A DNA stretch of 25,800 bases from assembly GCA_031263565.1 (NCBI GenBank), contig JAISFR010000118.1, forward strand, positions 1 through 25,800. The letters run 5' to 3'. The notes under the pieces were generated by a model, which did no database searches, was not told the DNA's origin, and was given only the letters and a program-made list of their open reading frames with translations. This document shows, piece after piece, positions 1,947 through 17,050 of this stretch. A program made the translations under genes and the position numbers. Position 1 is the first letter of the stretch; each line of letters opens with the position of its first letter. Source of the stretch: Candidatus Adiutrix sp. (GTDB lineage: Bacteria > Desulfobacterota > Desulfarculia > Adiutricales > Adiutricaceae).

Positions 1947-1964
1947 GATTGGCGGCCTTAAAAT

Positions 1965-2004
1965 AATGTGGCCCGGAGCTTCAGACCTCCGGGCCACATT
2001 TTTA
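1965..2004 (+). terminator. Rho-independent terminator
   Basis: Perfect 14-bp stem aatgtggcccggag / ctccgggccacatt with an 8-nt loop, followed by TTTT at 2001-2004, 19 nt after the autotransporter stop. Confidence 0.7.
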
Positions 2005-2210
2005 TGCCAAAGTTAAATGAATCAGCTCATTTAAACTGAAGTTCCTGACTACCCCCGCTATATCTTTGCATAAAGGGGCAAAAGTAAAGGTACTTCCTTC
2101 GGGCCACTCGTCGCGCCATTGCCTCTGCAATCCCCCCACCTTGATTCAGCCTAACCTGATTCGCCGTAATTGGCAAGGCGCTCTGTCAGGCAAAATTTTG
2201 ATCCAGTCCT

Positions 2211-2238
2211 TTACATGTGAGATATCGTGTGATATAGT
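2211..2238 (+). promoter_or_regulatory. Putative sigma70-type promoter TTACAT-N16-TATAGT, embedded in a TGTG...GATATC...CACA repeat-rich candidate operator.
   Basis: TTACAT at 2211-2216, 16-nt spacer, TATAGT at 2233-2238, about 33 nt upstream of the ATG at 2271. Sits in a 265-bp AT-richer intergenic region. GATATC and TGTGA repeats flank it. Confidence 0.3.
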
Positions 2239-2270
2239 GTATCCACAATTGACGATTGAGGATATCGGCC

Positions 2271-2915
2271 ATGTCCCAAAAAAAGTCGGCCCACTATCAG
2301 CGCCAGTACCGGCAGCGGCTGCGCGACAGGGGCCTGGTCAAGAAGGAAATCTGGATTCTGCCCGAACGGGCGGCTGAACTTCATTATGTGGAGCGGGAGC
2401 TTCGCCGGCCGGGGACCCGGTCCGTCAGCGTCGCCGACGCCGAAAGAGAGGTCGACACCATGAAAGCGGCTCAATTATGGACCACCCAGGAGCTTTACGA
2501 AGCCCTCGCGGCCGCGGACCTGTTCACCGACGGCCGGGCCAGCGTGGAAATTCTTAACGCGGCCGAGCCGTGCCTCCATATCGTCATGCACGATTACGGC
2601 GACCTGCCGCTGTTTTTGACTGTCTCCCGCCAGCACATCCTGGTCGAGGCCCTCTTGTGGCCGACCAGCTCGGTGCGCGACGCGGAGGCCCTCAACCGGG
2701 AGGTGCTGCGGACTCACAAGTTCTTCTCCCTGTCCACCGTGGGGATCGACACCCTGGCCGACGGCCGCGAGCATTACATCATGTTCGGTTCCCTGAGCGC
2801 TTTCTCCGTTTTGTCCGGCATTCTTTTTGAAATTGAAACCCTGGCCGACAACGTAATCCGAGCCACCGAGGCCTATGAGGATTTCCTGGTCGCGGAAAAG
2901 GAGACAGACTTATGA
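2271..2915 (+). CDS. Hypothetical protein. The C-terminal ~140 aa may be a YjfI-like (DUF2170) domain. The N-terminal ~40 aa are basic (possible small DNA-binding extension).
   Basis: ATG at 2271 with a GAGGA Shine-Dalgarno 9 nt upstream (the ORF track's TTG at 2256 is less likely). Its stop overlaps the start of the next gene (ATGA), consistent with the yjfI-yjfJ order seen in E. coli, where YjfI precedes a PspA-family gene. The domain assignment is from memory of that family and is low-certainty. Confidence 0.55.
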   Translation: MSQKKSAHYQRQYRQRLRDRGLVKKEIWILPERAAELHYVERELRRPGTRSVSVADAEREVDTMKAAQLWTTQELYEALAAADLFTDGRASVEILNAAEPCLHIVMHDYGDLPLFLTVSRQHILVEALLWPTSSVRDAEALNREVLRTHKFFSLSTVGIDTLADGREHYIMFGSLSAFSVLSGILFEIETLADNVIRATEAYEDFLVAEKETDL

Positions 2916-3625
2916 ACGTGTGGAGCAAACTGGTAAACGCGGTGCGCGGCGGCGTCAACGATCTCGGCGAGGGGCTGGTCGACAGCCAGGCCCTGCGGAT
3001 ATTGGATCAGGAAATAAGAGACGCTGACGAAGAACTGAAAAAATCCCGGGAAGCCCTGGCTTCCATGATGGCCCGGCAGAAGACGGCCGACGAGGCGGTC
3101 AAAAAGCTGGACGGCAGGATATCCGAATACGAGGGTTACGCCCTGAAAGCTCTGGACCTGGGCAACGAGATTCTGGGGCTGGAGGTGGCTGAAAAGCTGG
3201 CCGGGCTGGAAGTGGAACGCAATGACGAGGCCGACCGGCTGGCCGACACGGCCGAGAGCGTGGCCAGCCTGCGCAGGACCGTGACCCAGGCCGAGAACGG
3301 CATCAAGCGCCTCCGCCAGCAGCTGGACACCATCCGGGCCACCGAGAGCGTGCAGAAGGCCCAGATGACCGTGGCCCGCCGCCAGGGCGGGTCCGACGCC
3401 AAGCTCCAGACCGCTCTGGAATCCTTAGAGCGCATCAAGCAGCGCCAGGAACGGGCGGCGGCCGAAATCGACGCCTACAACGCCCTGTCCGGCGACAGCC
3501 GGGACGAAAGCCTGGAGGCCAAGCTCCGCGCCGCCGGCATCATCGTCAGCGAAGTCAGCGCCGAATCGGTGCTGGCCCGCCTGAAAGAAAAGAAGGCGGC
3601 CACGGAGGGCGAGCAGGAATCATAA
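2912..3625 (+). CDS. PspA/IM30 family protein (YjfJ-like; bacterial ESCRT-III-like membrane-remodelling protein).
   Basis: 237-aa, entirely coiled-coil protein. N-terminal amphipathic helix MNVWSKLVNAVRGGVNDLGEGL, then ...LRILDQEIRDADEELKKSREALA... The layout and several motifs (ATESVQKAQ, LESLERIKQRQERAAAEIDA, VLARLKE) resemble E. coli YjfJ/PspA. AGGAG-type RBS (aaaaggagac) upstream. Translationally coupled to the upstream gene. Confidence 0.85.
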   Translation: MNVWSKLVNAVRGGVNDLGEGLVDSQALRILDQEIRDADEELKKSREALASMMARQKTADEAVKKLDGRISEYEGYALKALDLGNEILGLEVAEKLAGLEVERNDEADRLADTAESVASLRRTVTQAENGIKRLRQQLDTIRATESVQKAQMTVARRQGGSDAKLQTALESLERIKQRQERAAAEIDAYNALSGDSRDESLEAKLRAAGIIVSEVSAESVLARLKEKKAATEGEQES

Positions 3626-3669
3626 GGCCAGGGCGCACCCGGCGCCTTAAAGGCGAAGGTAGGTGGGGC

Positions 3670-4371
3670 ATGATGGAATTTCTGGACAACTGCCTGTCGT
3701 TTCCCGTCAACATCTTCAGCGGGATGATGATCATCGCCGCCATTTACTGGCTGATCGCCTCCTTCGGCCTCTTGGACGTGGACAGCCTGGACCTGGATAT
3801 GGACGTGGGCGGCGACCTCGGCGGGGACGGGCCCGACGTCGGCCTCGGCGACGCGGGGCCGGCGGTGGCCGGCGTCTCCGGCCTGGAGGCCCTGACCAGT
3901 CTCCTGTTCCACCTCGGGCTCTACGGGGTGCCCATGACCCTGATTCTGTCCCTCATCACTCTGACCGGCTGGGTGATTACCTTCTGCGTGTTTGACCTGA
4001 CGCTGGGGCGCTTTCTGGCGCCCGGGCCGCTGCGCTATATCCTGGGCGTCCCGCTCTTCGCGGGGGCCTTCATCGCCGGCGCCCTGCTGACCTCGGTCAT
4101 CATCAGACCGCTGCGGCCGTTTTTTAAAAAAGAACCTTCAGTTACCGCCGCTTCAATCTGCGGGCGCGTGGTGCTGGTCCGTTCCACCCGGGTGACCGAC
4201 AGCTATGGCGAGGCGGTTTACGAAGGCGGCGGGACAAACATGCTCCTGGACGTCCGCCCGGCCCGCGAAGGCGCGGTTTTCAAACGCGGCGACAAAGCGG
4301 TGCTGCTGGATTACGATGCCGCCCGGCGTCTCTATACCATAATCAGTGAAGATGAATTTCGCGGGCGATAG
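3670..4371 (+). CDS. NfeD-like integral membrane protein (YqiJ/YuaF-like partner of flotillin) with a C-terminal OB-fold.
   Basis: Several predicted TM helices (IIAAIYWLIASFGLL; LILSLITLTGWVITFCVF; GVPLFAGAFIAGALLTSVII) with an acidic Gly/Asp-rich loop. C-terminal beta-rich segment GRVVLVRS...GEAVYEGGG...LLDYDAARRLYTI is typical of the NfeD OB-fold. Lies immediately upstream of an SPFH/flotillin gene, as in yqiJK and yuaF-floT. Confidence 0.65.
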   Translation: MMEFLDNCLSFPVNIFSGMMIIAAIYWLIASFGLLDVDSLDLDMDVGGDLGGDGPDVGLGDAGPAVAGVSGLEALTSLLFHLGLYGVPMTLILSLITLTGWVITFCVFDLTLGRFLAPGPLRYILGVPLFAGAFIAGALLTSVIIRPLRPFFKKEPSVTAASICGRVVLVRSTRVTDSYGEAVYEGGGTNMLLDVRPAREGAVFKRGDKAVLLDYDAARRLYTIISEDEFRGR

Positions 4372-4430
4372 GAATTCGTCGAGCGCCTTGACAAAGCCTT
4401 GGAAGGATATTTTAAGCAGGGGGACATCTT

Positions 4431-6338
4431 ATGTTCGGTCTCAGCAGTTCTATTCTGTTTCTGGTTGTGGTGGGCTTTATAGTCCTGACCGCCTTCGGCC
4501 TGGTCGGTCTGATCAAATCATTTTACATCAAGGTGCCCCAGGGGACGGCCCTCATTATCAACAATTTGCAGGCCACCCCCCAGGTCAGCTTCACCGGCGC
4601 CCTGGTTCTGCCGGTGATCCACAAAAAAGAATTCATGAAAATTTCGGTCCTGACCCTGGAAATCGACCGGCGCGGCAAAGACGGCCTCATCTGCAAGGAC
4701 AATCTGCGGGCCGACATTACCGTGGCCTTCTATCTGCGGGTCAATGAAACCGCCGACGACGTGCTGCAGGTGGCTAAAAGCATCGGGGCCGACCGGGCTT
4801 CCGATCCCACCGCCGTGGGCGTGCTGTTCAACGCCAAATTTTCCGAAGCCCTTAAAACAGCGGGCAAGCAGTTTGAACTGCACCGGCTCTTTGAAGAGCG
4901 CCTTCAGTTCCGGGAACGCATTCGCGAGGTCATCGGCAAGGACCTGAACGGTTACAGCCTGGAAGACGTGGCCATCGACTACCTGGAACAGACCTCGGTC
5001 ACCCACCTTGATCCGAACAACATCTTCGACTCGGAAGGCATCCGTAAAATCACCGAAACCACGGCCACCCAGAACGTCATTACCAACGAGGCCGAACGCA
5101 ACAAAGAACTGGCCATTCAGAAAAAGAACGTGGAAACCCGGGAAGCCAGCCTGGCCCTGGAACGTCAGCAGGCCGACGCTGAAGCCCGCCAGAAGCGGGA
5201 AATAGAAACCATCCGGGCCCGCGAGAAGGCGGAAACCCTCAAGGTGCAGGAAGAAGAGCGCTTAAAGGCCGAATACGCCCGCCTGCAGACCGAACAGGAA
5301 ATACAGGTTCGGGAGGAAAACCGGCACCGTGAAGTTGAAGTCGCGCAGCAGAACCGGGTGCGGGCGGTCCAGGTGGAAATGGAGCGGGTCACCCGGGCCA
5401 GGGACCTGGAAGTTGTGGCCCGCGAACGGGAAGTCGAATTGAGCCGCATCGACAAAGAGAAGGCCCTGGAAGAAGAGCGCAAGAACATCGCCAACGTCAT
5501 CCGCGAGCGGGTGGCGGTGGACAAGACCGTGGCCGTCGAGGAAGAGCGGATTAAAGATGTGCGGCTGGTGGCCGAGGCCGAGCGCCAGCGGCAGGTGGTC
5601 ATTATTGACGCCCAGGCCCAGGCCGGGGAAAAGCTGGTCAGCCAGGTGAAAGAGGCCGAGGCGGATAAGGAGCGAGCCCTGTTCAAGGCCGCTGAAATCA
5701 GCACTATGGCCCAGGCCGAACTGGAAGCGGCCACCAGGCAGTCCGAGGCGAAAAAGCGCCTGGCCGAAGGTCTTGAGGCCGAAGAAGCCGCCCTGGGGCT
5801 GGCCGAGGCCAGGGTGCGGCAGGCCAAGGCGGCGGCCGAGGAAAAAGAGGGGCTGGTCCAGGCCAGGGTCCTTGAGGAAAAACTTCTGGCCGAAGCTCGC
5901 GGCCAGGAACAGGTGGGGCTGGTCAAAGCCAGAACCGCCAGGGAATACGGCCTGGCGGAAGCCGACATCATTCGCGAACGCCTCAGAGGCGAGGCCGACG
6001 GGCTCACGGAAAAATTCAAAGCCATCGGCAGCCTGACCGAAGAGGCCCGGGCTCACGAGGAGTTCCGCATCCAATTGGAAAAGCACCTGGAAGCCGCTCT
6101 GGCCTCCATGGAAGCCAACAGGGAAATCGCCCGCGAGCAGGCCGACGTTCTGGCCGCGGCCCTGGCCAAGACCAGCATCGACATCGTCGGCGGCGACGGC
6201 GAGTTCTTCGACACTTTCTCCAAATCGCTCCGGGTGGGCAAGGCCATCAACGGCCTCCTGGGTAAAAGCCCGGCGGCCAACAGCCTGATGGAGGCTATCC
6301 TGTCCCGGGTCGGCCCGTCGGACGGCGACGGCCAATAA
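4431..6338 (+). CDS. Flotillin-like SPFH/band-7 protein (YqiK/FloT family) with a long Glu/Arg/Ala-rich coiled-coil region.
   Basis: N-terminal TM anchor (ILFLVVVGFIVLTAFGLVGLI). SPFH domain (YIKVPQGTALIINN...ISVLTLEIDRRGKDGLICKDNLRADITVAFYLRVN...). Then an ~300-aa EA/ER-rich coiled coil typical of flotillins. RBS agggggac before the ATG at 4431. Confidence 0.85.
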   Translation: MFGLSSSILFLVVVGFIVLTAFGLVGLIKSFYIKVPQGTALIINNLQATPQVSFTGALVLPVIHKKEFMKISVLTLEIDRRGKDGLICKDNLRADITVAFYLRVNETADDVLQVAKSIGADRASDPTAVGVLFNAKFSEALKTAGKQFELHRLFEERLQFRERIREVIGKDLNGYSLEDVAIDYLEQTSVTHLDPNNIFDSEGIRKITETTATQNVITNEAERNKELAIQKKNVETREASLALERQQADAEARQKREIETIRAREKAETLKVQEEERLKAEYARLQTEQEIQVREENRHREVEVAQQNRVRAVQVEMERVTRARDLEVVAREREVELSRIDKEKALEEERKNIANVIRERVAVDKTVAVEEERIKDVRLVAEAERQRQVVIIDAQAQAGEKLVSQVKEAEADKERALFKAAEISTMAQAELEAATRQSEAKKRLAEGLEAEEAALGLAEARVRQAKAAAEEKEGLVQARVLEEKLLAEARGQEQVGLVKARTAREYGLAEADIIRERLRGEADGLTEKFKAIGSLTEEARAHEEFRIQLEKHLEAALASMEANREIAREQADVLAAALAKTSIDIVGGDGEFFDTFSKSLRVGKAINGLLGKSPAANSLMEAILSRVGPSDGDGQ

Positions 6339-6350
6339 CGGGTGACGGCG

Positions 6351-9300
6351 ATGGCGGAAATTAAAGATGAAAAGCTTGAGGCTCTGGACGCGGCGGTAGC
6401 CGAGGGCGGGGCTTATGAAATCCTCCGCCGGCGCCTGTCGGACCTGGGCGGCCAACTGCGGGCGGCCGCCCAGGATCTCAACGAACGCCGGCTGGCCGAA
6501 TTCGGCAAGAGCGAGATGGACCTTGCCGGCCGGGTGCGCATCCGGACCGAGAACAACTGCATGGCCCGCGACATCGTCCAGGTCGGCGGCTTACTCCTGT
6601 TCGGCTACAACGTTTTCATCGGGCTGAAAAAAGAAACCCGGGTGGAAGACGTGTTTTCCCTCTATAAGCTGGAAGACCGGGGCGGCGACTATGAAGCCGT
6701 GCCGATACCCCTGGCCGACACTTTTCTGGCCGACCCGGTCTTCGTCCGCGATTTCACCGAACTCTACACCTATTACAAAGACGCCGGCCTTTTGCAGCTT
6801 TCGGTCTGGGACGGCAAGCTTCTGGCCAGCTTCAGGATAGGCCTCAAGGTTTCCGATGTGCGGGTTTTCCGCTGGTCTGTTTCGGCGGACGGGCGTAACC
6901 TAAGCTATATCGACAATCGCGGCGAGCGCGACATCAAGCTTCCGCCGGCCCATGATTTTGAATGGGTTCGCACCGGGCGGGAAAACGCCGTGGGCGGGCG
7001 GCACCCGCACGTCAATATTCTGGACACGGTTTTCGTCGAAACCGTGGGCGGCGATTTGACCGTCAAGATGGAAAACAATACCGAAAGCGGCCTGGGCATT
7101 TACCGCGAAGACGTGCTGGACAAAACCCAATCCCTTGATGACGGGCAGATCGAATACGCCAGGGTCGGCAGCCTGATTCTCCTGAAAATATTGCCCTACC
7201 GGGAAACCGTGTGGCGCTATCTCGTTTACAACAGCCTGACCCATGACGTCCGCCGCATCGACGCCATCGGCCAGGCCTGCCTCGAACTGCCGGAAGATCA
7301 CGGCATCATCTTTCCCGGCGGCTGTTATCTTCAGAACGGGGAGTGGAAGACTTTTGACCAGCCCATGAACGGCATGCTCTTCCGCCGCCAGCGCAAATCG
7401 CCCAACGGCGAGGATGTGCTTTACGTTTTCTATGATCCTGAAGCCGGCCGTCTGACTCTGTTCAATTACAACCTGATTGAGCGGGCCCTGGCTTCACCCA
7501 TCATGGGCGACGGTTACACTCTTCTGGAGGACGGCCGCATGATTCTCTTTGAGGATCAGGGCGACGAAGCCACCCGGATTCACCCGATGCAGATTTGGCG
7601 AACCCCTTTTTACACCGACGAGTACGCCGCCCTGACCAGGAGCCGCAACACCGTTCTGTCCCGCGTCGGCAACGCCGACCTGGTGCGCGGCATTTCCGAT
7701 TTGTACAATATTGTGAGGGAGGTTGAAGCGCCGAGGGTTTCTTCGGCCCTCTACAACAAGCTCAGCCAGGACGCCCGCCGCCTGTTCGACGCCTATTTCT
7801 GGATGAAGGATGAGGAAAACTTCAAAGTCGCCGCCGTTCTGCGGGAAATAGCCAGGACCGGCGAACTGGTCATCGATGAATATGAGAAGGTGGAAAGCAT
7901 CCGCAAGCAGGCCGAAAAAGCTCTGCGCGAGGCGGCCGCCGCCCAGAAGGAACTGTTCGGCAAACTGACGCCGGACGCCTGGGACAATATCCGCGAATTC
8001 TCCGACGGCCTGGAAAGCGTCCAACTGCAGCGCGGCCGGCTCATATCCCTGCGCGCTCTGCGCTATATTGATCTGGCCGGCATCGATCAATTGGAAGCGG
8101 AACTGAAAACGCGGGAAGATGAAGTCGCCCGCGGGGCGGCCGTTTTCCTGGCCGGGGACAGGGCTCTGGCGCCCTATACGGCCGCGCTTGTTCAGCTCGA
8201 CACGCAGACCGCCAGGGCGCCCAACGTGGCCGCTTTGGCCGCCGCCGGCGCGGAGCTGGAAAAAATAAGCGGCGACCTGGATGCCCTGTCCGCGCTCATG
8301 TCTTCCGTTCCCTTTGAAGACGCGACCTGGCAGACGAGGATTATTGAAGACATTTCCGAGGTCTATGCCCGGACCAATCAGGCCCGGGCCCGGCTGGCCG
8401 CGCGCCGCCGGGAACTCGGCGGGGCCGAGGACCAGGCCCGGTTCGGGGCCCGGTTCAAGCTTTTCAGCCAGACTATGGCCTCGGCCGTGACCCTGGCCAC
8501 CGACCCCGAGCGATGCGACGAAGAGCTGGCCCGGCTTCTTTTGCAGCTTGAGGAAATGGAAAGCCAGTTCGGGGACTATGAGGAATTTTCAGCCGATATC
8601 CTGCAAAAACGGGAAGAGTTGCTGGAAACTTTCGAATCGCGCAAGCAAACTCTTCTGGACGCCCGTCAGCGCCGGGCCCAGGGCCTGGCCGGCAGTGCCC
8701 GGCGCATCTTGGAAACCCTGCCGCGCCGCACCGCCCGTCTGGCCGCCATTGAGGAGATTAATGCCTTTTTCGCGGCCGACCCCATGGTGCTCAAGCTCCG
8801 GGACCTGACCGACAGCCTGCGCGCCCTGAAAGACAGCGTCAGGGCCGAGGACCTGGAAGCCCGGTTCAAGGCGGCCCGGGACCAGGCCCTGCGCGGTCTG
8901 CGCGACAAGACCGAACTTTACGAGGACGGCGGGGCCACCATCCGCCTCGGGCCGCGCCACCGCTTCAGCGTCAATACCCAGGAGCTTGACCTGACCGTTC
9001 TGCCCCAGGAAGGCGAACTGCGGCTTTCGTTAACCGGCACCGATTTTCAGGAGCCGGTGCGGGATGCCGGCCTGGAGGATATGCGTCAATTTTGGGGAAT
9101 GGTCATTGAATCGGAATCGGCGGACGTCAGTCGGGCCGAGTTCCTGGCTTATGAAATTCTGCAAGCCGCGCGCTCCGGGCGGGACGGCTTTGACTATGAA
9201 GAGATGCGGGCCATGTTGAGCCGGCCGGAAGAACTGGAGGCCAAGGTCAGAGCCTTTGCCGCGCCCCGCTATCGCGAGGGTTATGAAAAGGGCCTGCACG

Positions 9301-11612
9301 ACCGGGATGCTTTTTTGATTCTGCAGAATATTCTGCCCCTGATCGACAGCGCCGGCCTGCTCCGCTTTCCGCCGGCGGCCCGGGCGCTGGCCATGCTGTT
9401 CTGGCAAAGGGTCCGTCACGAGCCCGGGCCCTCGACCTGGATTGAGAGCGCCCGCGCCAGCCAGGCTGTCGGCCTTTTGTACCATCACGACGGCGGGCTT
9501 GAAACCCTGCGGGCGGAAATAGAAAAGAGCCTGATCTCCTTTCTGGGCGACAGCGGTTTCGAGCTCCAGCCCGACTGCCTGGCCCAGGCCTCGGAGTTTC
9601 TTTCCCTGACCCTGGCCCGGCAGCCGGAAGAATTCGTTTGCGGTAAATACGCGCGAACCCTGTATCGGCAACTGCGGGCCCAGTTGGAGGCCCGCCACCT
9701 CTGGAGCGGTTACGCCAATGTGCAGCGGGAACATCCTGAACGCCTGGCCTGGCGCTGGAAGATGATGACCGGCTGGCTGCGGGGCCTGGCCGCCCAGCCC
9801 GAATATGAGCCTCTGGCCGCTTATGTTGAGGAGGCCGCCGCCCTGGCCATTGCCGACAACAGCGGAGAGATGAATGTTCAGTTCAGCGAAACCGATTTGG
9901 CGGTGACCGTCGAAGGCCTGATGAGTTCTCATCCGCGGATAAAAGAGGGCCGCCTGACCCTGGCCATTGACGATTTTTTCAGCCGGCTGCGGCGCCACAA
10001 GCGTCAGATGCAGCCTGGTTATCACAGTTATCAGCAGCGGCGTCACGCCTTTCTGGAAAAAGAGCGCGACCGGCTGCGTCTGGACGACTTTAAGCCCCAG
10101 CCGCTGACCTCCTTTGTTCGCAACCGTTTGATCGACGAGGTTTATCTGCCGATCATCGGCGACAATCTGGCCAGGCAGATGGGGGCTTCGGGGGAGGCCC
10201 GCCGCAGCGACCTGATGGGTCTCCTGATGCTCATCTCCCCGCCGGGTTACGGCAAGACCACCCTCATGGAATATGTGGCCCACGCTTTGGGGTTGATCTT
10301 CATGAAGATCAACGGACCTTCCCTCGGCCGCGCGGTGCTGTCCCTGGATCCCGCCCAGGCCCCGGACGGGACGTCCGGACAGGAGTTGCGTAAACTTAAT
10401 CTGGCCCTGGAGATGGGCAACAACGTCATGCTTTATGTGGACGACATTCAGCACACCAACCCCGAGTTTCTGCAGAAATTTATTTCTCTGTGCGATGCGA
10501 CCCGCCGCATTGAAGGCGTCTGGAACGGGCGCGGCAAAACTTACGACCTGCGCGGCAAGAAGTTCTGCGTGGTCATGGCCGGCAACCCTTACACCGAGTC
10601 GGGCGAAGTTTTCAAAATTCCGGACATGCTGGCCAACCGGGCCGACGTCTATAATCTCGGCGAGGTGCTCGGCGGCCTGGAGGAGGCCTTTGCCCGGAGC
10701 TACATCGAAAACAGCCTGACCTCCAACCCGGTTCTGGCGCCTCTGGCCCAGCGGGATATGAAAGACCTCCATCACTTCCTGGAGCGGGCCCAGGGCAAGG
10801 CTTTCAGCGCCGGAGAACTGAGGTGCGACTACAGTGAAGCCGAGCAGACCGAGATCCCCGCGGTCTTAAGCCGCCTCCTGACTCTGCGGGATACGGTGAT
10901 GAAGGTCAACCGCCATTACATCGCCAGCGCCGCCCAGTCCGACAAATACCGCTCCGAGCCGCCCTTCAGGCTCCAGGGCAGTTACCGCAACATGAACAAG
11001 CTGGCCGGACAGGTTTCGGCGGTGATGAACGAGCGGGAACTGGAAGGCCTGCTGGACGACATGTACGCCGGCGAGGCCCAGCTCCTGACCGGTTTCGCCG
11101 AGGAGAACCTGTTGAAGCTGGCCGAGATAAGGGGCCGCCAGTCGCCGGAGCAGGCCGCCAGGTGGGCCGAGATCAAAAGGCAGTTCAATCGGGACAAGAC
11201 TTTCGGCGGGGACGGCGCCGAAGCCGGCGACCGGCTGGTGGCCCAGTTGGCCGATCTGGCCCACTATGTCAAAATTCTGGGTGAACGGAGCGGCGGCGGC
11301 TCAGACAAGCTGTCGGGGCAGCTGGCCAACCTGGTGGCGGCCGTGGCGGCCGTCAGCGGCGGCCGGAAAGTGGTCAAGATGTCGGACCTTATGGAGCAGG
11401 TCAACAGCGCCCGCAATAAATCAACCGTTATTCCCCATATTCAGCCGCTTCAAGTCCAGCCCGCTGTTTCAAAGCCGGCCGCTCCGCCTCAGGGAGGGCC
11501 GGCTGCGGCGGCCCGGGCCCGCACCGGGCCCGGCCAGGGGCATCAAGCGCCGCCGAACCCCCACGCGCCTCAGCCGCCTCGCCGACCGGCGCCGCCCAAA
11601 CCCAAGTCCTGA
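6351..11612 (+). CDS. Giant multidomain protein (~1753-1756 aa). Large N-terminal region of unknown function with mixed alpha/beta and coiled-coil segments. C-terminal AAA+ ATPase module of MoxR/AAA_5-like type. Pro-rich basic disordered C-terminal tail.
   Basis: Start is ATG at 6351 (or GTG at 6342), 4-13 nt after the flotillin stop, so translationally coupled. Walker A ISPPGYGKTTLMEY at about nt 10240-10265. Walker B-like MLYVDDIQHTNPEFLQKF, resembling MoxR DEINRAPPEVQ, at about 10430-10470. Followed by sensor-like VVMAGNPYTESGE and ANRADVYNLG. Tail ...PPQGGPAAAARARTGPGQGHQAPPNPHAPQPPRRPAPPKPKS. I recognise no match to a named family for the first ~1280 aa. Confidence 0.8.
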   Translation: MAEIKDEKLEALDAAVAEGGAYEILRRRLSDLGGQLRAAAQDLNERRLAEFGKSEMDLAGRVRIRTENNCMARDIVQVGGLLLFGYNVFIGLKKETRVEDVFSLYKLEDRGGDYEAVPIPLADTFLADPVFVRDFTELYTYYKDAGLLQLSVWDGKLLASFRIGLKVSDVRVFRWSVSADGRNLSYIDNRGERDIKLPPAHDFEWVRTGRENAVGGRHPHVNILDTVFVETVGGDLTVKMENNTESGLGIYREDVLDKTQSLDDGQIEYARVGSLILLKILPYRETVWRYLVYNSLTHDVRRIDAIGQACLELPEDHGIIFPGGCYLQNGEWKTFDQPMNGMLFRRQRKSPNGEDVLYVFYDPEAGRLTLFNYNLIERALASPIMGDGYTLLEDGRMILFEDQGDEATRIHPMQIWRTPFYTDEYAALTRSRNTVLSRVGNADLVRGISDLYNIVREVEAPRVSSALYNKLSQDARRLFDAYFWMKDEENFKVAAVLREIARTGELVIDEYEKVESIRKQAEKALREAAAAQKELFGKLTPDAWDNIREFSDGLESVQLQRGRLISLRALRYIDLAGIDQLEAELKTREDEVARGAAVFLAGDRALAPYTAALVQLDTQTARAPNVAALAAAGAELEKISGDLDALSALMSSVPFEDATWQTRIIEDISEVYARTNQARARLAARRRELGGAEDQARFGARFKLFSQTMASAVTLATDPERCDEELARLLLQLEEMESQFGDYEEFSADILQKREELLETFESRKQTLLDARQRRAQGLAGSARRILETLPRRTARLAAIEEINAFFAADPMVLKLRDLTDSLRALKDSVRAEDLEARFKAARDQALRGLRDKTELYEDGGATIRLGPRHRFSVNTQELDLTVLPQEGELRLSLTGTDFQEPVRDAGLEDMRQFWGMVIESESADVSRAEFLAYEILQAARSGRDGFDYEEMRAMLSRPEELEAKVRAFAAPRYREGYEKGLHDRDAFLILQNILPLIDSAGLLRFPPAARALAMLFWQRVRHEPGPSTWIESARASQAVGLLYHHDGGLETLRAEIEKSLISFLGDSGFELQPDCLAQASEFLSLTLARQPEEFVCGKYARTLYRQLRAQLEARHLWSGYANVQREHPERLAWRWKMMTGWLRGLAAQPEYEPLAAYVEEAAALAIADNSGEMNVQFSETDLAVTVEGLMSSHPRIKEGRLTLAIDDFFSRLRRHKRQMQPGYHSYQQRRHAFLEKERDRLRLDDFKPQPLTSFVRNRLIDEVYLPIIGDNLARQMGASGEARRSDLMGLLMLISPPGYGKTTLMEYVAHALGLIFMKINGPSLGRAVLSLDPAQAPDGTSGQELRKLNLALEMGNNVMLYVDDIQHTNPEFLQKFISLCDATRRIEGVWNGRGKTYDLRGKKFCVVMAGNPYTESGEVFKIPDMLANRADVYNLGEVLGGLEEAFARSYIENSLTSNPVLAPLAQRDMKDLHHFLERAQGKAFSAGELRCDYSEAEQTEIPAVLSRLLTLRDTVMKVNRHYIASAAQSDKYRSEPPFRLQGSYRNMNKLAGQVSAVMNERELEGLLDDMYAGEAQLLTGFAEENLLKLAEIRGRQSPEQAARWAEIKRQFNRDKTFGGDGAEAGDRLVAQLADLAHYVKILGERSGGGSDKLSGQLANLVAAVAAVSGGRKVVKMSDLMEQVNSARNKSTVIPHIQPLQVQPAVSKPAAPPQGGPAAAARARTGPGQGHQAPPNPHAPQPPRRPAPPKPKS

Positions 11613-11614
11613 TG

Positions 11615-11650
11615 TTGACAAAGCCCCCGGCGTTGACAAAACCCCCGGCG
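11615..11650 (+). repeat. Tandem 18-bp direct repeat TTGACAAAGCCCCCGGCG / TTGACAAAACCCCCGGCG, immediately after the giant gene's stop.
   Basis: Seen directly: 17 of 18 positions identical, head-to-tail, each copy starting with a -35-like TTGACA. The same TTGACAAAGCC 11-mer also occurs at 4388-4398, between the NfeD and flotillin genes. Confidence 0.5.
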
Positions 11651-11654
11651 GCTC

Positions 11655-11683
11655 TTGGCGGGCGGGCTTTTCTGTGCTATAAT
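11655..11683 (+). promoter_or_regulatory. Putative sigma70 promoter with extended -10 (TTGGCG-N17-TGcTATAAT) for the downstream cell-wall cluster.
   Basis: Perfect TATAAT at 11678-11683, preceded by TGc (extended -10). TTGGCG lies 17 nt upstream. About 60 nt upstream of the lipoprotein ATG at 11744. Confidence 0.45.
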
Positions 11684-11743
11684 GGGCAGATGTTTACGGC
11701 AAGGCTGGACTTCAGGATCTCAAGACCTCCGGGAGAGCGTTTG

Positions 11744-12358
11744 ATGCCGCCCTTCAGAAAAATGCTGCTGCTCGGCCTGGCGGCCGCTCTGGCGCTGGGC
11801 CTGGGCGCCTGCGGGCGCGGCCCTTTCTCTCCGGAGGCCCGGCGTCAGTCCCGGGAACTGGATCAATACCTCAAAGCGCTTCAGGCTGATCTGCTCACTG
11901 ACGACACTTTTGAATGGAATACTCTTTCTTCGGCCCTGACCGTCAAAGCCCTGGCCTATTCCGGCCCGGTGCGCCAGGCCGCCGAACAGCGCTTCAGGGG
12001 CGACCCCGCGTTTCAGGAAGAAAGCTCCCGCTGGGCTCAGGCCCCCGGCCGCCGTCATCCGCCGCTGGTCATCCTGATGGGGCTCTTCGCCCCGGACCTT
12101 CAGGAGCAAGACGTCGCCCCGGCCGGGCGTTTCCGCCCCCGCCTCCGGACCGCCGACGGACGGAGCCTCAAGCCTCTGGAGATTAAGAGCTATGGCCGCG
12201 GCTCGGTTTTTGTCCGTGACCATTTCCCGGTTTTCAACCCCTGGGAGGCGGTTTATCTGCTGCGCTTCCCCTCACCCGGGGCCGGCCCTGAGGGGCGGCT
12301 CGATTTCCTCCTGGAATGGCCGGGCGGCGTTCAGACCATGGCTATCAATGACCGCTGA
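11744..12358 (+). CDS. Putative lipoprotein of unknown function
   Basis: ATG at 11744 with a GGGAGAG RBS 7 nt upstream. Signal peptide MPPFRKMLLLGLAAALALGLGAC with lipobox LGAC. The longer ORF-track start at 11612 merely reads through the tandem DNA repeat (LTKPPALTKPPA) and is rejected. Confidence 0.6.
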   Translation: MPPFRKMLLLGLAAALALGLGACGRGPFSPEARRQSRELDQYLKALQADLLTDDTFEWNTLSSALTVKALAYSGPVRQAAEQRFRGDPAFQEESSRWAQAPGRRHPPLVILMGLFAPDLQEQDVAPAGRFRPRLRTADGRSLKPLEIKSYGRGSVFVRDHFPVFNPWEAVYLLRFPSPGAGPEGRLDFLLEWPGGVQTMAINDR

Positions 12359-12434: not shown

Positions 12435-14216
12435 GTGATCCGGCGGATTCAAATCGCCGTTCTGGCGCTGATCTGCCTGACGGCCGGCCGGGCCCCGGCC
12501 GCCCCGGGCGACATGCTGCCCGACGCCATCCTCTATCCCGGCGACCGGCCCGGCCATATCCTGGTGGCGGACAAGGCTGAGCAGATGCTCTACCTCTACA
12601 GCCATGACGGCCAGGGCCGGGTGCGCCTGGAACGGATCATGCCCTGTTCCACCGGCGAAATAAAAGGCGACAAAATGATTCAGGGGGACAGAAAGACCCC
12701 CAACGGTTTCTATATTTTCAATGAAAAGCTGCTGCCCCGCGAGCTTTCGCCGATTTACGGCGCTTTGGCCTATCCCACCGACTACCCCAATTTCTGGGAC
12801 AGGAAAATGGGGCGCGGCGGATACGGCATCTGGATCCACGGCATCAACAAACCCCTGGCGGATTACGATTCCAACGGCTGCATCGAACTGGAAAATGCCG
12901 ACATCGCCCGGATGGAGGAATTGATCCGGCTCTACGACACCCCGCTGATCACCTACGAGACGATGACCCAGGCTCCGGTGGAGCAGTTGGAAGCCGAGGG
13001 GCGTCTTCTGCGGGACTTTCTGGAAACCTGGCGCCGCGCCTGGGCCGGGAAGGACCACGCCGCCTATCGCCGCCTTTATGACCCTGAATTCGTCAATTCC
13101 GACGGCCGCTCCTTTTCCGGCTGGATGACCCACAAGGAGAACGTGGCCCGGAATTATCAGACCATCACCGTGGAAATCAAGGATTTGAAGATCTACCGCC
13201 ACCGGGACGTGCTGCTGGCCGTCTTCGAGCAGGACTATCGGGGCGATCAGCGATTCACCTCCATAGGCCTTAAGCGCCTGTATCTGAAGAAAGAGGACGG
13301 CGCCTATAAAATCATCGGCGAAGAATTTCGCCCGCTGCCCGAACCGGAAACCCGCAAATGGCTGACTGCCGCCGAAAAGCGCCGCGCTTTGGAGACCCCG
13401 CCGCTGACCGTGGCCAAAGCCCAGACTCCGGCGGCCGGATCCGAGGTCCCCGGAACTTCGGAGCAAGCCCGGGCTGTGGCCGATCAGGCCGGGGCGGCCG
13501 CCGGGCTCCAGGCCGAAGCCGCCCGGGCGGAAGCCGAAGCCCGGGCCGCCCAAGCCCGGGCGGCCGCCGAGGTCCAGGCCCAAGCCGCCCAAGTTCAGGC
13601 GGCCGCCGAGGCCCAGGCCCAAGCCCGGGCGGAAGCGGAAGCCCAAGCCGCCCAAGTTCAGGCGGCAGCCGAGGCCCAGGCCCAAGCCCAGGCGGAAGCG
13701 GAAGCCGAAGCCCAAGCCGCCCAAGCCCGGGCGGAAGCCGAAGCCGAAGCCCAGGCCCGGGCGGCAGCCGAAGCGGCCGGCCGGGACCAGGCCCGGCTCG
13801 AGGCCGAAACCAGAGCCCTGGAGGCCGCCCGAATTCGAGCCGAAGCCCGGGCCGCCGAGGAAGCCCGGATAAAACAGGAACTGACCACCCTGGTCAGAAA
13901 CTGGGCCGCGGCCTGGAGCCGCCGGGACGCCGGGGCCTACCTGGCTTTTTATCATCCTGATTTCTATTTTGACGACAAAGACCTGGACCTGGCCGGCTTC
14001 ATCAACTACCGCCGGCCTCTGATCGAAGAGGCCTCGGTCATTGAAGTCAAGGTCTCCAATTTCGACGTCCGGCTGGACGGCGAAACGGTCCGGGTCATTT
14101 TCCGTCAGGACTACCGCTCTGACCATTACCGTGACCGGGGGCGCAAGACCCTGACCTTGAAAAGGGACGCGGGCCTCTGGAAAATCGTGGCCGAGACCTG
14201 GAAGGCCCTGAGATGA
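12435..14216 (+). CDS. Secreted L,D-transpeptidase-fold (YkuD) protein with an Ala/Glu/Gln-rich repeat linker and two NTF2-like (SnoaL/DUF4440-like) domains. Csd6/Pgp2-like candidate L,D-carboxypeptidase or L,D-transpeptidase.
   Basis: GTG start with signal peptide MIRRIQIAVLALICLTAGRAPAAP. YkuD catalytic region ...GYGIWIHGINKPLADYDSNGCIELENADI (conserved His and Cys). Two copies of an NTF2-like module (LRDFLETWRRAWAGKDHAAYRRLYDPEF... and LTTLVRNWAAAWSRRDAGAYLAFYHPDF...), separated by an (EAQA)n low-complexity linker. Confidence 0.75.
   Translation: MIRRIQIAVLALICLTAGRAPAAPGDMLPDAILYPGDRPGHILVADKAEQMLYLYSHDGQGRVRLERIMPCSTGEIKGDKMIQGDRKTPNGFYIFNEKLLPRELSPIYGALAYPTDYPNFWDRKMGRGGYGIWIHGINKPLADYDSNGCIELENADIARMEELIRLYDTPLITYETMTQAPVEQLEAEGRLLRDFLETWRRAWAGKDHAAYRRLYDPEFVNSDGRSFSGWMTHKENVARNYQTITVEIKDLKIYRHRDVLLAVFEQDYRGDQRFTSIGLKRLYLKKEDGAYKIIGEEFRPLPEPETRKWLTAAEKRRALETPPLTVAKAQTPAAGSEVPGTSEQARAVADQAGAAAGLQAEAARAEAEARAAQARAAAEVQAQAAQVQAAAEAQAQARAEAEAQAAQVQAAAEAQAQAQAEAEAEAQAAQARAEAEAEAQARAAAEAAGRDQARLEAETRALEAARIRAEARAAEEARIKQELTTLVRNWAAAWSRRDAGAYLAFYHPDFYFDDKDLDLAGFINYRRPLIEEASVIEVKVSNFDVRLDGETVRVIFRQDYRSDHYRDRGRKTLTLKRDAGLWKIVAETWKALR
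13490..13800 (+). repeat. In-frame tandem GCC-GAA/GCC-CAA-type repeats, with a period of about 61 bp plus shorter 6-bp units, encoding an (E/Q)A-repeat linker.
   Basis: Seen directly: the near-identical block gcccaagccgcccaagttcaggcggc(c/a)gccgaggcccaggcccaagccc occurs at ~13580-13627 and ~13641-13688. Surrounding sequence is gccgaagcc/gcccaggcc repeats encoding AEAQAQAEAEA. Confidence 0.6.
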
Positions 14217-14305
14217 ACCCCAACGGCTGAATGATGAGCCCCTCGCGCGGAAAAGCGCCCGCCAAGGGACGCTGGAATATCTTGATCATCCGCCCCAGGG
14301 GCGAG

Positions 14306-15079
14306 ATGATTGATTTTTCCGTCTCGCCGGTGGCCTTGCTGGCCTTCTGGCTCTTCGTCCTGATCCTGGCGGCCGTCTCGGTCGTGACGGTCGGCCGTTA
14401 TTTCAGCCTCTACCTGGAACACCGGGATCTGGAAGGCGTTCATCGGGAAGCCGCCCTGGAGTTGAGCCGCCTGCGCCGTCAATTTGAATATCAGTCGGCG
14501 GTGGCTGACGATTATCTGGAGATCATGAACGCCCTGGGCCGCATCGAGGCCCAGGACGGGCCGGAGACGGCCGAAGCGTCGGAAGCCGCCCCGGAGAATG
14601 GCGAGTTTATAGCTTCCGGAGCGCTGGAGGCTCTGGCCGCCCAGGTCGGCTCTGAAGGCGGACGGCCGCCGGCGGAGCCCGCCGACGGCCGCCTGGCCGC
14701 CTGGGCGGATTTCTTTCCCGGGCCGGCCTTTCCGCCGGAGCAGGAACTGGAGATTGAGAATCTCAGGATCAACGGCGGGCACTTCCGGTTTCAACTGCTC
14801 AACGAAGGCGCCGGCCGGCAGGCGCAGGGGCGGCTGCTTTTGCTTTTCGCGGTGGAGGAGGCCGATGGCCAGATCAGCCTGAGGCCCTACCCGGATTTTG
14901 ACCCCCAAAGCCCCCGGCCGGATTTTGAGGCCGGGCCGGCTTACAATATCCGTTCATCCAAGCCGGTTTCCGGTCAGTTGGAACTGAACGGGGGCGACCG
15001 GGTGCTGGAGATGATGGTCATCGCCCGGTCCCGCGCCGGCAACGTGGTCCTGAAAAAGAAGATCAGCCCCGATTCCTGA
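14306..15079 (+). CDS. Membrane-anchored hypothetical protein: one N-terminal TM helix, a coiled-coil segment, and a C-terminal beta-rich domain.
   Basis: ATG at 14306 preceded by an AGGGG RBS. The alternative ATG at 14231 lacks an RBS. TM VSPVALLAFWLFVLILAAVSVVTV. Located between the LDT-fold and M14-like genes. Confidence 0.5.
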   Translation: MIDFSVSPVALLAFWLFVLILAAVSVVTVGRYFSLYLEHRDLEGVHREAALELSRLRRQFEYQSAVADDYLEIMNALGRIEAQDGPETAEASEAAPENGEFIASGALEALAAQVGSEGGRPPAEPADGRLAAWADFFPGPAFPPEQELEIENLRINGGHFRFQLLNEGAGRQAQGRLLLLFAVEEADGQISLRPYPDFDPQSPRPDFEAGPAYNIRSSKPVSGQLELNGGDRVLEMMVIARSRAGNVVLKKKISPDS

Positions 15080-15124
15080 GCCGCCCCCCGGGTCGGCGGC
15101 CTCCCCTGGAAAGGTTCGATTTTA

Positions 15125-17050
15125 ATGTTCGTCAAAAAAATATATATCGGGGCCGTCGCGGCCTTTTTGCTTCTGGCCGGGGCCGGCCCGGCCGCCGCCC
15201 AGGGTCCGGAGCGGGGCCCTGACCGGCAGCATCTGGTTTACGGGGCCGGTACGCCCCAGGAACTTCAGGTCTATAAAATTTTCGGCCGCCAGCCCGGGCC
15301 CACGGTCCTGATCATCGGCGGCATTCAGGGCGATGAGGCCGGCGGCTTTATGAGCGCCGACCTCTATGTCGATCTGGCTTTGAAAAAAGGCAATCTGATC
15401 GTCGTGCCCCGGGCCAATTTCAAAAGCATCATCCAGTACCACCGGGGGCCGGACGGGGACATGAACCGGAAATTCCGGGGCGACCTCGACCGCGACCCGG
15501 AGCGCCCCATAGTGGAGGCGCTCAAGGCCCTGATGGCCGAAAGCGATCTGGTGCTGAACCTCCATGACGGCTCCGGTTATTATCGGCACATCTGGGAAAG
15601 CGACCTGGCCAACCCCAACCGCTACGGCCAATGCATCATCGCCGACGCCGACGTCTATACCCATAAGCCCAGCGGGCGCATCATCCCCCTGAAAGACTAC
15701 GCCGAAGACGTGGTGGAGAGGATCAACCGGCAGATCGACGATCCCCAGCAGAAGTTCCGCTTCTCCAACCACAACACCGAGGCCCCGGACAGCCGGCATA
15801 AGGAGCAGAAGGGCAGCGTCTCTTATTACGCCCTGACCGAATTGGGCATCCCGGCCTTCGGGGTGGAGACCTCCAAGCAGTTGCCCAGCCTGGAACTGAA
15901 GATTTATCAGCACAACCTGGCGGTCAACGCCTTTCTGGAAGTCTTCGGGCTGGAACTGGAACAGCCCCGGATACGTCTGGAAGCGCCTTATCTGGCCTAT
16001 CTTTTGATAGCGGTCAATAACGGAACGCCTCTGGCCGTGGCCGACGGCCAGACTCTGATGGTGGCCCCGGGCGCGGCCGTGGAAGTCCTGGACGTGGTCT
16101 CCAATTTTGACCGGGGGCTGTCGGCGGACGTCAAAGGGCTGGGCGGCTTCAATGATCTGGGCGTTCCGCTGCGGATCGAGCAGCCCACCAGCATTGAAGT
16201 GCAGAAAGACCAGCGGCGCATCGGGCGGATCAGCCTGGCTCTTCTGCCCGCGGGTCAGGAGGATCAGAGCCCGCGCCTGACCGGCGAAAACCGTCTCCGA
16301 CTGCCCCGGGCCGAGGCGGTGGCGGCGGCCGGGCCGGAAGCCGCCGGCCGCTTGGCGGTTCTGGATTCGCCGCGCAATGAAATAAGGCAGGCCATCGAGC
16401 TGACCCCCGGCCCCCGGCCCCCGGCCGGCGCGCCCCCGGCCCCGGCCCGGGTGACCGGTTTTCTGATCGAGGTCGACGGGTGGCCGGTGGAACTGGCTCC
16501 GGGTCAGAAGCTGGAGGTCATGAGCGGCAGCCTGATCAAAATGGTGGATTTAAAAAGCGACGGTCCCTTGCCCGAAAAAACGGTCATGAATCTCAAAGGC
16601 TTCATGCCCAAGAGCAAGCTTTATAAAAACGACGGCGAAGATCGGGGCTTCACCGCCGATACCGGCCGGGACCTGATGCCGGCCTTTTCGGTCGGGCAGA
16701 GGGGCCGCGACTATGAGATCAACGCCGAGGTCGGGCCGGAGGTCAGGGCTTCCTGTTCCATACGCCTGACGCCGCCCAAACTGGTCTCGGCGACCATTGA
16801 GATCGACGGGCGGAGGCAGACCCTTACGCCTGGCGGGCGCTTCGGCATTCCGCCCGGCGCCGAGGTGACCGTGCTGGCCGTGGAACTGGCCGACGGCCGG
16901 GAGCTCGGCAACCCCCGCTTCACCCTGGGCGGCAAGCCTTTCCCCGCGGAACTGCCCCAGACCTTGAAAATGCCGGGCTTCGGGGTCAACCTGGCCGTTT
17001 TCAACGGCGAAGTCCTGGCCGGCAAAGTTTTGTGGGCCTTAAAGCCCTAG
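15125..17050 (+). CDS. Secreted M14-like zinc carboxypeptidase (AstE/AspA superfamily fold; candidate Csd4/Pgp1-type peptidoglycan peptide carboxypeptidase) with three C-terminal beta-rich internal repeats.
   Basis: Signal peptide MFVKKIYIGAVAAFLLLAGAGPAAAQ. Catalytic-domain motif VLIIGGIQGDEAGG, with Q-x-x-E in place of the usual H-x-x-E zinc ligands as reported for Helicobacter Csd4, and a downstream His in VLNLHDGSGYY. C-terminal half has three ~35-aa repeats (YLLIAVNNGTPLAVADGQTLMVAPGAAVEVLDV / GFLIEVDGWPVELAPGQKLEVMSGSLIKMVDL / SATIEIDGRRQTLTPGGRFGIPPGAEVTVLAVEL). Confidence 0.65.
   Translation: MFVKKIYIGAVAAFLLLAGAGPAAAQGPERGPDRQHLVYGAGTPQELQVYKIFGRQPGPTVLIIGGIQGDEAGGFMSADLYVDLALKKGNLIVVPRANFKSIIQYHRGPDGDMNRKFRGDLDRDPERPIVEALKALMAESDLVLNLHDGSGYYRHIWESDLANPNRYGQCIIADADVYTHKPSGRIIPLKDYAEDVVERINRQIDDPQQKFRFSNHNTEAPDSRHKEQKGSVSYYALTELGIPAFGVETSKQLPSLELKIYQHNLAVNAFLEVFGLELEQPRIRLEAPYLAYLLIAVNNGTPLAVADGQTLMVAPGAAVEVLDVVSNFDRGLSADVKGLGGFNDLGVPLRIEQPTSIEVQKDQRRIGRISLALLPAGQEDQSPRLTGENRLRLPRAEAVAAAGPEAAGRLAVLDSPRNEIRQAIELTPGPRPPAGAPPAPARVTGFLIEVDGWPVELAPGQKLEVMSGSLIKMVDLKSDGPLPEKTVMNLKGFMPKSKLYKNDGEDRGFTADTGRDLMPAFSVGQRGRDYEINAEVGPEVRASCSIRLTPPKLVSATIEIDGRRQTLTPGGRFGIPPGAEVTVLAVELADGRELGNPRFTLGGKPFPAELPQTLKMPGFGVNLAVFNGEVLAGKVLWALKP

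Follow-up and report, generated by a model that had tools for sequence, protein, structure and literature searches.

Operons in which a CesT/Tir-like gene and a PspA gene are joined to three more genes were described as a class by comparative genomics (Ravi et al. 2024, mSystems, PMC11237479). [quoted passage not shown] An operon of the same type is the 'biofilm-associated cluster' bacABCDEF of Pseudomonas aeruginosa, in which PA14_16190 was named bacE in 2024 and was shown to be co-transcribed with bacA-D by reverse-transcription PCR (PMC10948618). The 25,800-nucleotide (nt) stretch of DNA analysed here, referred to as the window (contig JAISFR010000118.1, positions 1 to 25,800, assembly GCA_031263565.1), is from Candidatus Adiutrix sp., a genus of the phylum Thermodesulfobacteriota. 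A gene at 6351-11612 of the window encodes a large ATPase that is very probably the Candidatus Adiutrix orthologue of BacE (PA3728 / PA14_16190). The window protein is an added member of a known but functionally uncharacterised family, and its gene stands in an already described operon.

The window and P. aeruginosa loci are alike in the Pfam architecture of BacE (DUF3686, DUF7902 and AAA) and in the four genes upstream of bacE, which match in kind and order. They differ at three points. P. aeruginosa has BacF, a PLD protein, downstream of bacE, where the window has an unrelated, probable lipoprotein gene. A sigma-54 site had been proposed for P. aeruginosa bacA, whereas the window operon is preceded by a sigma-70-like site (Table 1); no sigma-54 -24/-12 element was found upstream of the window operon, and the search gave fewer matches than expected by chance. 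The C-terminal tail of P. aeruginosa BacE also differs from the proline-rich basic tail of the window protein.

An arrangement of this kind has parallels. In HflK/C-FtsH and other SPFH-NfeD-AAA+ systems an SPFH scaffold, an NfeD-like partner and an AAA+ enzyme are encoded together or act together, as in the bac operon.

Identification and integrity of the bacE gene

The gene is an uninterrupted open reading frame (ORF) on the + strand that runs from a GTG at 6342 or an ATG at 6351 to a stop codon at 11610-11612. An earlier note on this DNA, made by a model from the sequence and its ORFs, had given a product of 1756 amino acids (aa). This length holds from the GTG; from the ATG, the start used for the identical protein at NCBI, the product is 1753 aa. 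The identical NCBI entry is named 'MAG: DNA repair ATPase [Candidatus Adiutrix sp.]'. The G+C content at third codon positions (GC3) of bacE is 0.76, compared with 0.77-0.83 in the neighbouring genes, in agreement with the statement of the earlier note that codon usage and GC resemble those of the flanking genes. The upstream flotillin-like gene stops at 6338, leaving a gap of 12 nt to the ATG or 3 nt to the GTG. Of the start-stop coupling to flotillin that had been claimed, the tight spacing therefore stands and the overlap does not.

Homologues at 62-89% identity were colinear with the window protein over its full length, so that bacE is neither an assembly chimera nor frameshifted. The earlier note had held the gene to be real and had suggested a check for frameshifts and chimerism; the ORF is intact, and colinearity with the homologues revealed neither defect. 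Long antisense ORFs within bacE (e.g. 9030-10775) were without support and are expected at ∼62% GC. No transmembrane segment was detected by hydropathy scan, and window BacE is predicted to be soluble and cytoplasmic.

Family membership and orthology

Window BacE was searched against Pfam, giving a match to DUF3686 (PF12458) at aa 36-483 (nt 6456-7799) with 654.7 bits against a cut-off of 25 (E=7e-197). This match spans positions 2-448 of the 448 in the profile. DUF7902 (PF25472) was matched at aa 605-688 with 78.3 bits against a cut-off of 26 (E=5.2e-22). In a search of 5.8 billion proteins, 8,000 candidates were scored, of which at least 6,138 clusters (90% identity) passed E<=1e-5. With aa 1-1200 as the query and no filter, 1,327 representatives (50% clustering) were obtained, of which 435 had E-values below 1e-30. 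The best-scoring full-length representatives were mostly ∼1,550-1,900 aa.

Homologues were found in at least 6 phyla. Gammaproteobacterial relatives were found in Pseudomonas, Proteus, Providencia, Xenorhabdus, Gilliamella, Alteromonadaceae and Vibrio. Other relatives were found in Bacteroidota (Carboxylicivirga, Flavobacterium, Hymenobacter), Bacillota (Lachnospiraceae), Actinomycetota (Natronoglycomyces, Streptomyces) and Deinococcota (Deinococcus). The nearest relative of window BacE was 86-89% identical. The family motifs SPPGYGKTT, DDIQH, GNPYTESG, NRAD and QGSYRNM are all present in window BacE and varied little or not at all across alignments of 17, 18, 46 and 83 sequences. When two family motifs were used as search patterns, 546 of 600 metagenome matches held relatives.

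The P. aeruginosa homologue (P0028, 1746 aa, a cluster of 3,222 member sequences) was 62% identical to window BacE over 1635 aa with 2 gaps. Its gene follows genes for DUF2170, PspA, a 213-aa protein and a 688-aa protein and is followed by a PLDc_2 gene. Judged from this gene order, the locus is the bacABCDEF operon, PA3732 to PA3727 / PA14_16140 to PA14_16200.

These results changed the standing of the protein. The earlier note had described it as orphan-looking, with ∼1280 N-terminal residues in no recognised family and in an arrangement not previously described. The search for orthologues that it proposed was run and returned the widespread family above, with DUF3686 and DUF7902 both lying in the region said to be without a family. 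Since both the operon and its ATPase are reported in Ravi et al. 2024 (PMC11237479), and BacE was named in 2024, the view that the system was undescribed was wrong.

The operon and its conservation

The window repeats the P. aeruginosa order of five genes, BacA, BacB, BacC, BacD and BacE (Table 1). The coupling to SPFH/IM30 genes claimed in the earlier note is thus genuine, with PspA_IM30 and flotillin-like genes upstream of bacE. The start of bacB overlaps the stop of bacA by 4 nt, and the BacB homologue is 61% identical to the P. aeruginosa locus (tblastn). The BacC homologue has three transmembrane-like segments by hydropathy scan, and no Pfam match was found for it. In the BacD homologue a single transmembrane-like segment (aa 1-35, hydropathy scan) is followed by a long Glu/Ala/Arg-rich coiled coil. 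Neither Band_7 nor another Pfam model was matched by the 635-aa window protein, nor was any PDB sequence. A Band_7 match is carried by an actinobacterial homologue 50% identical to window BacD; the flotillin label rests on this match, on the identity to P. aeruginosa BacD and on the literature.

The BacA homologue aligned end to end with the NCBIfam model NF050185, 'biofilm formation regulator BacA', scoring 296.2 bits where the cut-off is 300, and matched PDB 8q8o over aa 67-208 (E=7e-39). Its basic N-terminal ∼66 aa (MSQKKSAHYQRQYRQRLRDRGLVKKEIWILPE...) lie outside both DUF2170 and the crystallised 8q8o fragment. The NCBIfam model covers this stretch, which therefore appears to be conserved among BacA proteins. 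The stretch may be akin to ribbon-helix-helix DNA-binding modules, which would fit a role for BacA as a repressor of the operon.

To measure linkage, the neighbouring proteins of the window were used as queries against 87 loci, comprising 80 from a metagenome scan (diverse alignment), 5 from look-ups of encoding contigs and 2, both of Adiutrix, from a genome scan. Only loci with enough flanking sequence were counted. The 80 metagenome loci were the top scorers, at 46-62% identity. A flotillin-like gene lay directly upstream of bacE on the same strand at 67 of 70 loci; one further locus (L002) has a flotillin-like gene at a larger gap. A YqiJ-like gene was present at 60 of 64 loci, and two of the four that missed it hold a ∼210-aa gene in that position, one with a weak YqiJ_N match. 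PspA was found at 29/56 loci, DUF2170 at 26/56 and a PLDc_2 gene after bacE at 14/67.

The ATPase thus follows the flotillin/YqiJ pair (>93%) far more tightly than it follows PspA (52%), a distinction added here to the account of Ravi et al. 2024, which is comparative genomics only. From these counts the conserved unit comprises the YqiJ-like gene, the flotillin-like gene and bacE, to which CesT-PspA is often added. Whether orthologues always adjoin flotillin or PspA genes, a point raised in the earlier note, was answered largely in favour of flotillin and against PspA. The low PLD count also means that the missing BacF leaves the membership of the window genes in the bac operon type intact; no PLDc_2 gene follows bacE in the window.

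The whole operon is carried by the Carboxylicivirga (Bacteroidota) locus. The Lachnospiraceae and Natronoglycomyces loci have the flotillin core, and PspA is not adjacent. At the most divergent locus examined (L007) the core is present and PspA lies 6 kb downstream of bacE.

Several of the loci have further features. The bacE gene of L007 lies amid ankyrin-repeat genes (1-4978 and 20532-20866), and a BacE homologue of 1876 aa (P0399) also matches several ankyrin-repeat Pfam models. An AIM24 gene and an M48 (HtpX-like) peptidase gene stand upstream of the bacE homologue at L023 (4494-6295), and a hybrid histidine kinase gene stands upstream at L073 (89-4274); neither locus has a flotillin/YqiJ pair. 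A BacE homologue with 56% identity (H3; NC_009444.1, 92431-97329) is encoded on a 425-kb plasmid record of Pseudomonas fluorescens SBW25.

Domain architecture of BacE

BacE consists of an N-terminal helix, a beta-propeller, long helices, a helical bundle, one AAA+ module and a variable tail, in that order (Table 1). A model of aa 1-1200 was generated with AlphaFold from 83 sequences of 24-89% identity, with a mean predicted local distance difference test score (pLDDT) of 82.6. In the region of long helices (aa 423-856) individual helices were of 20-50 residues, and pLDDT was 60-85, lowest at ∼aa 620-750 around DUF7902. The small beta unit that follows had a pLDDT of ∼62-83 and the helical bundle 81-95; the conserved motifs GPRHRFSVNTQ, TGTDF and EGYEKGxHDxDA lie in this region (8937..9863), for which no family match was obtained.

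The model was searched against the PDB with Foldseek. The best matches included beta-propellers (Ski8, PON1, CyRPA, the prolyl-oligopeptidase propeller and the clathrin terminal domain) and propeller-plus-solenoid coat proteins (IFT-A subunits, clathrin heavy chain and nucleoporins), with E-values of 1e-6 to 1e-3 and TM-scores of at most 0.13. The propeller matches confirm the order of propeller and then helices, in line with the domain description of Ravi et al. 2024 and with the beta-rich N-terminus and long helical stretches noted earlier from the sequence. The resemblance to coat proteins is only a lead, and may be caused by generic propeller and helical content in the model.

The C-terminal module is a divergent AAA+ domain and is the most conserved part of BacE, which indicates that its nucleotide chemistry is under selection. 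The Walker A motif PPGYGKTT and the DDIQH motif reported in the earlier note were both located (Table 1). Residues K1302, D1364, D1365, N1412, R1430 and R1546 were invariant in 18 diverse representatives, down to 30% identity, and were at least 90% conserved in 83 sequences from four phyla. R1546 lies in the invariant QGSYRNM motif of the lid/C-terminal region and is a candidate for sensor 2. A model of aa 1151-1753, generated from a shallower alignment (pLDDT 64.7), has a Rossmann-like core, a beta-hairpin before the sensor-1 strand, a helical lid/C-terminal region and a disordered tail.

Pfam gave weak matches to AAA_5, AAA and AAA_22 at aa 1290-1420, with 25-31 bits for AAA_5 (cut-off 22) and 28-34 bits for classical AAA (cut-off 21.2). 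The model AAA_3, specific to MoxR proteins of the helix-2-insert clade, scored 12.4-13.6 bits, below its cut-off of 27. Structural neighbours of the module were all AAA+ motors, and MoxR and Hsp100 proteins (ClpA, Hsp101, ClpB) scored equally. PDB sequence searches, with the single protein and with a 46-sequence profile, matched only the P-loop. No gene for a VWA-domain partner was found among the window genes or at five annotated homologous loci. The C-terminal MoxR/AAA_5-type ATPase of the earlier note was therefore upheld as a single C-terminal AAA+ module; with AAA_3 failing and Hsp100 proteins scoring equally, the MoxR label is unproven, and a MoxR/AAA_5-type placement is possible.

The last 64 aa of window BacE (nt 11418-11609) are Pro/Ala/Gln-rich with an isoelectric point (pI) of 12, compared with a pI of 5.3 for the core. 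Alignment columns past ∼aa 1650 have no consensus. The proline-rich basic tail was shared by the closest Adiutrix-clade relatives alone; the tails of Pseudomonas proteins are different and have an acidic end, and the enterobacterial proteins examined, those of Pragia and Proteus (∼1,645 aa), have no tail. The disordered P/A/Q/R/K-rich tail noted earlier is, from its alignment, a real but lineage-specific appendage. The earlier note had considered membrane or nucleic-acid contact through the tail; a family-level role for it was rejected, as the tail is not conserved.

Proposed function of BacE

BacE is proposed to be the large soluble ATPase of a bac/Psp-like envelope-stress operon. The propeller and helical part would attach BacE to the BacD/BacC membrane scaffold on its cytoplasmic side, and the AAA+ modules would oligomerise. 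Through ATP binding and hydrolysis the flotillin assembly, and any PspA polymer present, would then be assembled, remodelled or recycled during membrane stress. As the explanation of the protein as a whole, an orthologue of BacE with ATP-driven scaffold remodelling is favoured by a narrow balance of the evidence. The specific mechanism of docking, oligomerisation and remodelling is put forward tentatively as somewhat short of an even prospect.

The proposed task would be comparable to that of Vps4 on ESCRT-III, or of FtsH in HflK/C cages. As with Vps4/CdvC, BacE is an AAA+ ATPase with its gene beside that of an ESCRT-III-superfamily protein, here PspA, and remodelling of a polymer is plausible. 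The N-terminal MIT domain and the aromatic pore loop 1 of Vps4 and the classical AAA clade are not found in BacE. A Vps4-like ATPase appears to be absent from bacteria according to a 2025 review (PMC7619361), which makes the BacE family a sensible candidate. That BacE-type proteins are the missing bacterial counterpart of Vps4, coat-like ATPases of propeller and helices that sit on flotillin cages and use ATP to turn over flotillin and PspA assemblies in membrane repair, is possible but doubtful.

Data from P. aeruginosa are compatible with a stress role. Mutants of bacA and bacB have biofilm, rhamnolipid and virulence phenotypes, BacE protein was 8.9-fold higher in a bacA mutant by proteomics (PMC10948618), and PA3728-PA3732 were up-regulated in all phage-infected samples (PMC12041424). 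The mutant phenotypes and the phage induction fit a Psp-type envelope-stress response.

Several observations weigh against scaffold remodelling by BacE. PspA is missing at about half of the loci and so is no universal substrate, and the flotillin gene itself is absent at two (L023 and L073). The linkage counts probably lean taxonomically to Proteobacteria, the main named relatives at 46-62% identity. Walker B is DD, not DE, across the whole family, which could make hydrolysis slow and switch-like. Aromatic residues are lacking from the beta2-alpha2 loop (consensus GH.V.SLDP..AP in 83 sequences), which argues against threading in the style of Vps4 or ClpB; for this reason a MoxR/dynein-like remodelling stroke would be likelier than threading. 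Confidence in the AAA+ model is no more than moderate, and the model is poor near sensor 1 and the arginine finger. The literature searched contained no mention of DUF3686, no functional study of BacE / PA3728 and no experiment on the activity, partners or localisation of any family member.

Four other explanations were considered. BacE could be a MoxR-like maturation chaperone that inserts or activates a client held in the flotillin microdomain and does not remodel polymers. This is rather unlikely, given the 12.4 bits for AAA_3, the equal scores of ClpA, Hsp101 and ClpB, the lack of a VWA partner in the window and the annotated loci examined, and the lack of a conserved candidate client beyond BacC and BacD. 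BacE also differs from the MoxR chaperones NorQ, CbbQ and RavA in its DD Walker B and in its 1,250-aa N-terminal extension. That large non-catalytic region, typical of signalling hubs, would suit a nucleotide-dependent switch or scaffold whose propeller senses membrane damage and which nucleates or licenses a Psp/flotillin response, as would the invariant DD and the weak Pfam similarity to AAA_22, AAA_16 and novel STAND NTPase models. The STAND matches were far under their cut-offs and the structural neighbours were all AAA+ motors, however, the candidate arginine finger and sensor residues are invariant, and the modelled pre-sensor-1 hairpin is typical of working AAA+ motors, leaving a switch a distinctly unlikely explanation.

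A place for BacE in a membrane-associated anti-phage or abortive-infection module, in which the ATPase acts on infection, joined in some operons by a PLD-family enzyme, would account for the phage induction, for the PLDc_2 gene at 14/67 loci and for a TerB-like gene after bacE at one Bacteroidota locus. Phage induction is expected of a Psp-type envelope-stress operon. Neither BacE nor its partners matched PADLOC significantly, the only match being one of 29 residues at the P-loop to IetA (E=0.0037), and BacE fits no PADLOC model of defence ATPases such as BrxC. Among 50,697 phage records no homologue was found; of 72,556 plasmid records just 13 held one, mostly megaplasmids, chromids or chromosome-sized records. 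The 3,222-member P. aeruginosa cluster looks core rather than island-borne, although the look-up gave only one distinct genomic context, and a defence role is considered very improbable. Least credible of all is a role in DNA repair, the one given in the database name. The name traces to the Pfam description of DUF3686, 'ATPase involved in DNA repair', and to names propagated from it, and weak RuvB P-loop matches (∼45 residues) were obtained. These matches were confined to the Walker A region, domain searches of BacE revealed no domain for DNA binding, nuclease or helicase activity, the genes conserved beside it encode membrane proteins and not repair functions, and the literature searched is, as stated, silent on DUF3686. 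The name is probably a misleading legacy label.

The interest lies in the mechanistic question posed by the family and not in the window, which adds no new kind of system. A ∼200-kDa ATPase found in at least 6 phyla, nearly always beside a bacterial flotillin, represents a real knowledge gap, and BacE is genetically tractable in P. aeruginosa.

Features of the window

Table 1. Features of the bac operon and of BacE in the window. Positions are in nt of the window unless given as aa of the 1753-aa protein.
Feature	Position	Strand	Basis
Sigma-70-like promoter candidate, TTTACA-17-TATAGT with TG extension	2210..2238	+	Consensus scan, 10/12 matches
BacA/YjfI homologue (DUF2170; CesT/Tir-like chaperone or regulator), first operon gene	2271..2915	+	Pfam E=3.5e-46
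BacB homologue, PspA/IM30 (bacterial ESCRT-III)	2912..3625	+	Pfam PspA_IM30 E=5.6e-45
BacC homologue, YqiJ/YuaF-like (NfeD-like) membrane protein	3670..4371	+	41% identity to P. aeruginosa BacC, E=1e-46
BacD homologue, flotillin-like SPFH protein, 635 aa	4431..6338	+	65% identity to P. aeruginosa BacD over 645 aligned columns
BacE, very probable orthologue, 1753 aa (197 kDa); predicted cytoplasmic beta-propeller/helical/AAA+ ATPase	6351..11612	+	ORF, Pfam, homology
BacE N-terminal helix	aa 3-51		Model; pLDDT low at aa 1-17, high from ∼aa 21
BacE beta-propeller domain, ∼27 strands	6513..7610, aa ∼55-420	+	Model, pLDDT ∼90
BacE long helical/coiled-coil region, including DUF7902 (nt 8163-8414)	7617..8918, aa 423-856	+	DSSP on model
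BacE small beta unit (aa 863-903), then compact helical bundle (aa 928-1171)	8937..9863	+	AlphaFold model
BacE AAA+ alpha/beta core	10203..10670, aa ∼1285-1440	+	Motifs in the rows below
BacE Walker A PPGYGKTT, G-K1302-T	10239-10262	+	Translation
BacE Walker B hhhhDD, D1364-D1365	10428-10445; DDIQH from 10440	+	Translation
BacE pre-sensor-1 beta-hairpin	aa 1386-1399		Predicted in model
BacE sensor-1 N1412; candidate arginine finger R1430	AAA+ core
BacE AAA+ lid and C-terminal helical region	10671..11300, aa 1441-1650	+	pLDDT 75-94 for aa ∼1450-1620
BacE variable C-terminal tail	11301..11609	+	pLDDT below 50
Probable lipoprotein gene, signal LLLGLAAALALGLGAC, lipobox LGLGAC	11744..12358	+	Translation

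The ORF downstream of bacE (11612-12358) overlaps the bacE stop codon, and the gene, probably for a lipoprotein, likely starts at 11744. A promoter-like site lies ahead of it at 11655-11683, and the gene is probably a separate transcription unit. Its product occupies the position of BacF and was rejected as a BacF candidate, as it does not resemble the PLD protein BacF of P. aeruginosa. No family match was found for it in Pfam, NCBIfam or PADLOC.

Directly upstream of the operon an autotransporter gene (54-1946) encodes PATR repeats and an autotransporter beta-domain, and ends at a terminator-like hairpin at ∼1968-2003. The operon lies among peptidoglycan-remodelling genes (12435-17050 and 22823-24745). 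Among their products are a YkuD L,D-transpeptidase that carries DUF4440 and two Cds6_C NTF2-like domains in the same chain, an M99 (Csd4/Pgp1-like) carboxypeptidase, an RlpA-like DPBB protein encoded on the minus strand and an S13 D-Ala-D-Ala carboxypeptidase. Two ORFs with WG beta-repeats (18524-18985 and 18873-19448) are in different frames and overlap by ∼110 nt; either two neighbouring genes, the second with a later start, or a single gene broken by a frameshift may lie here.

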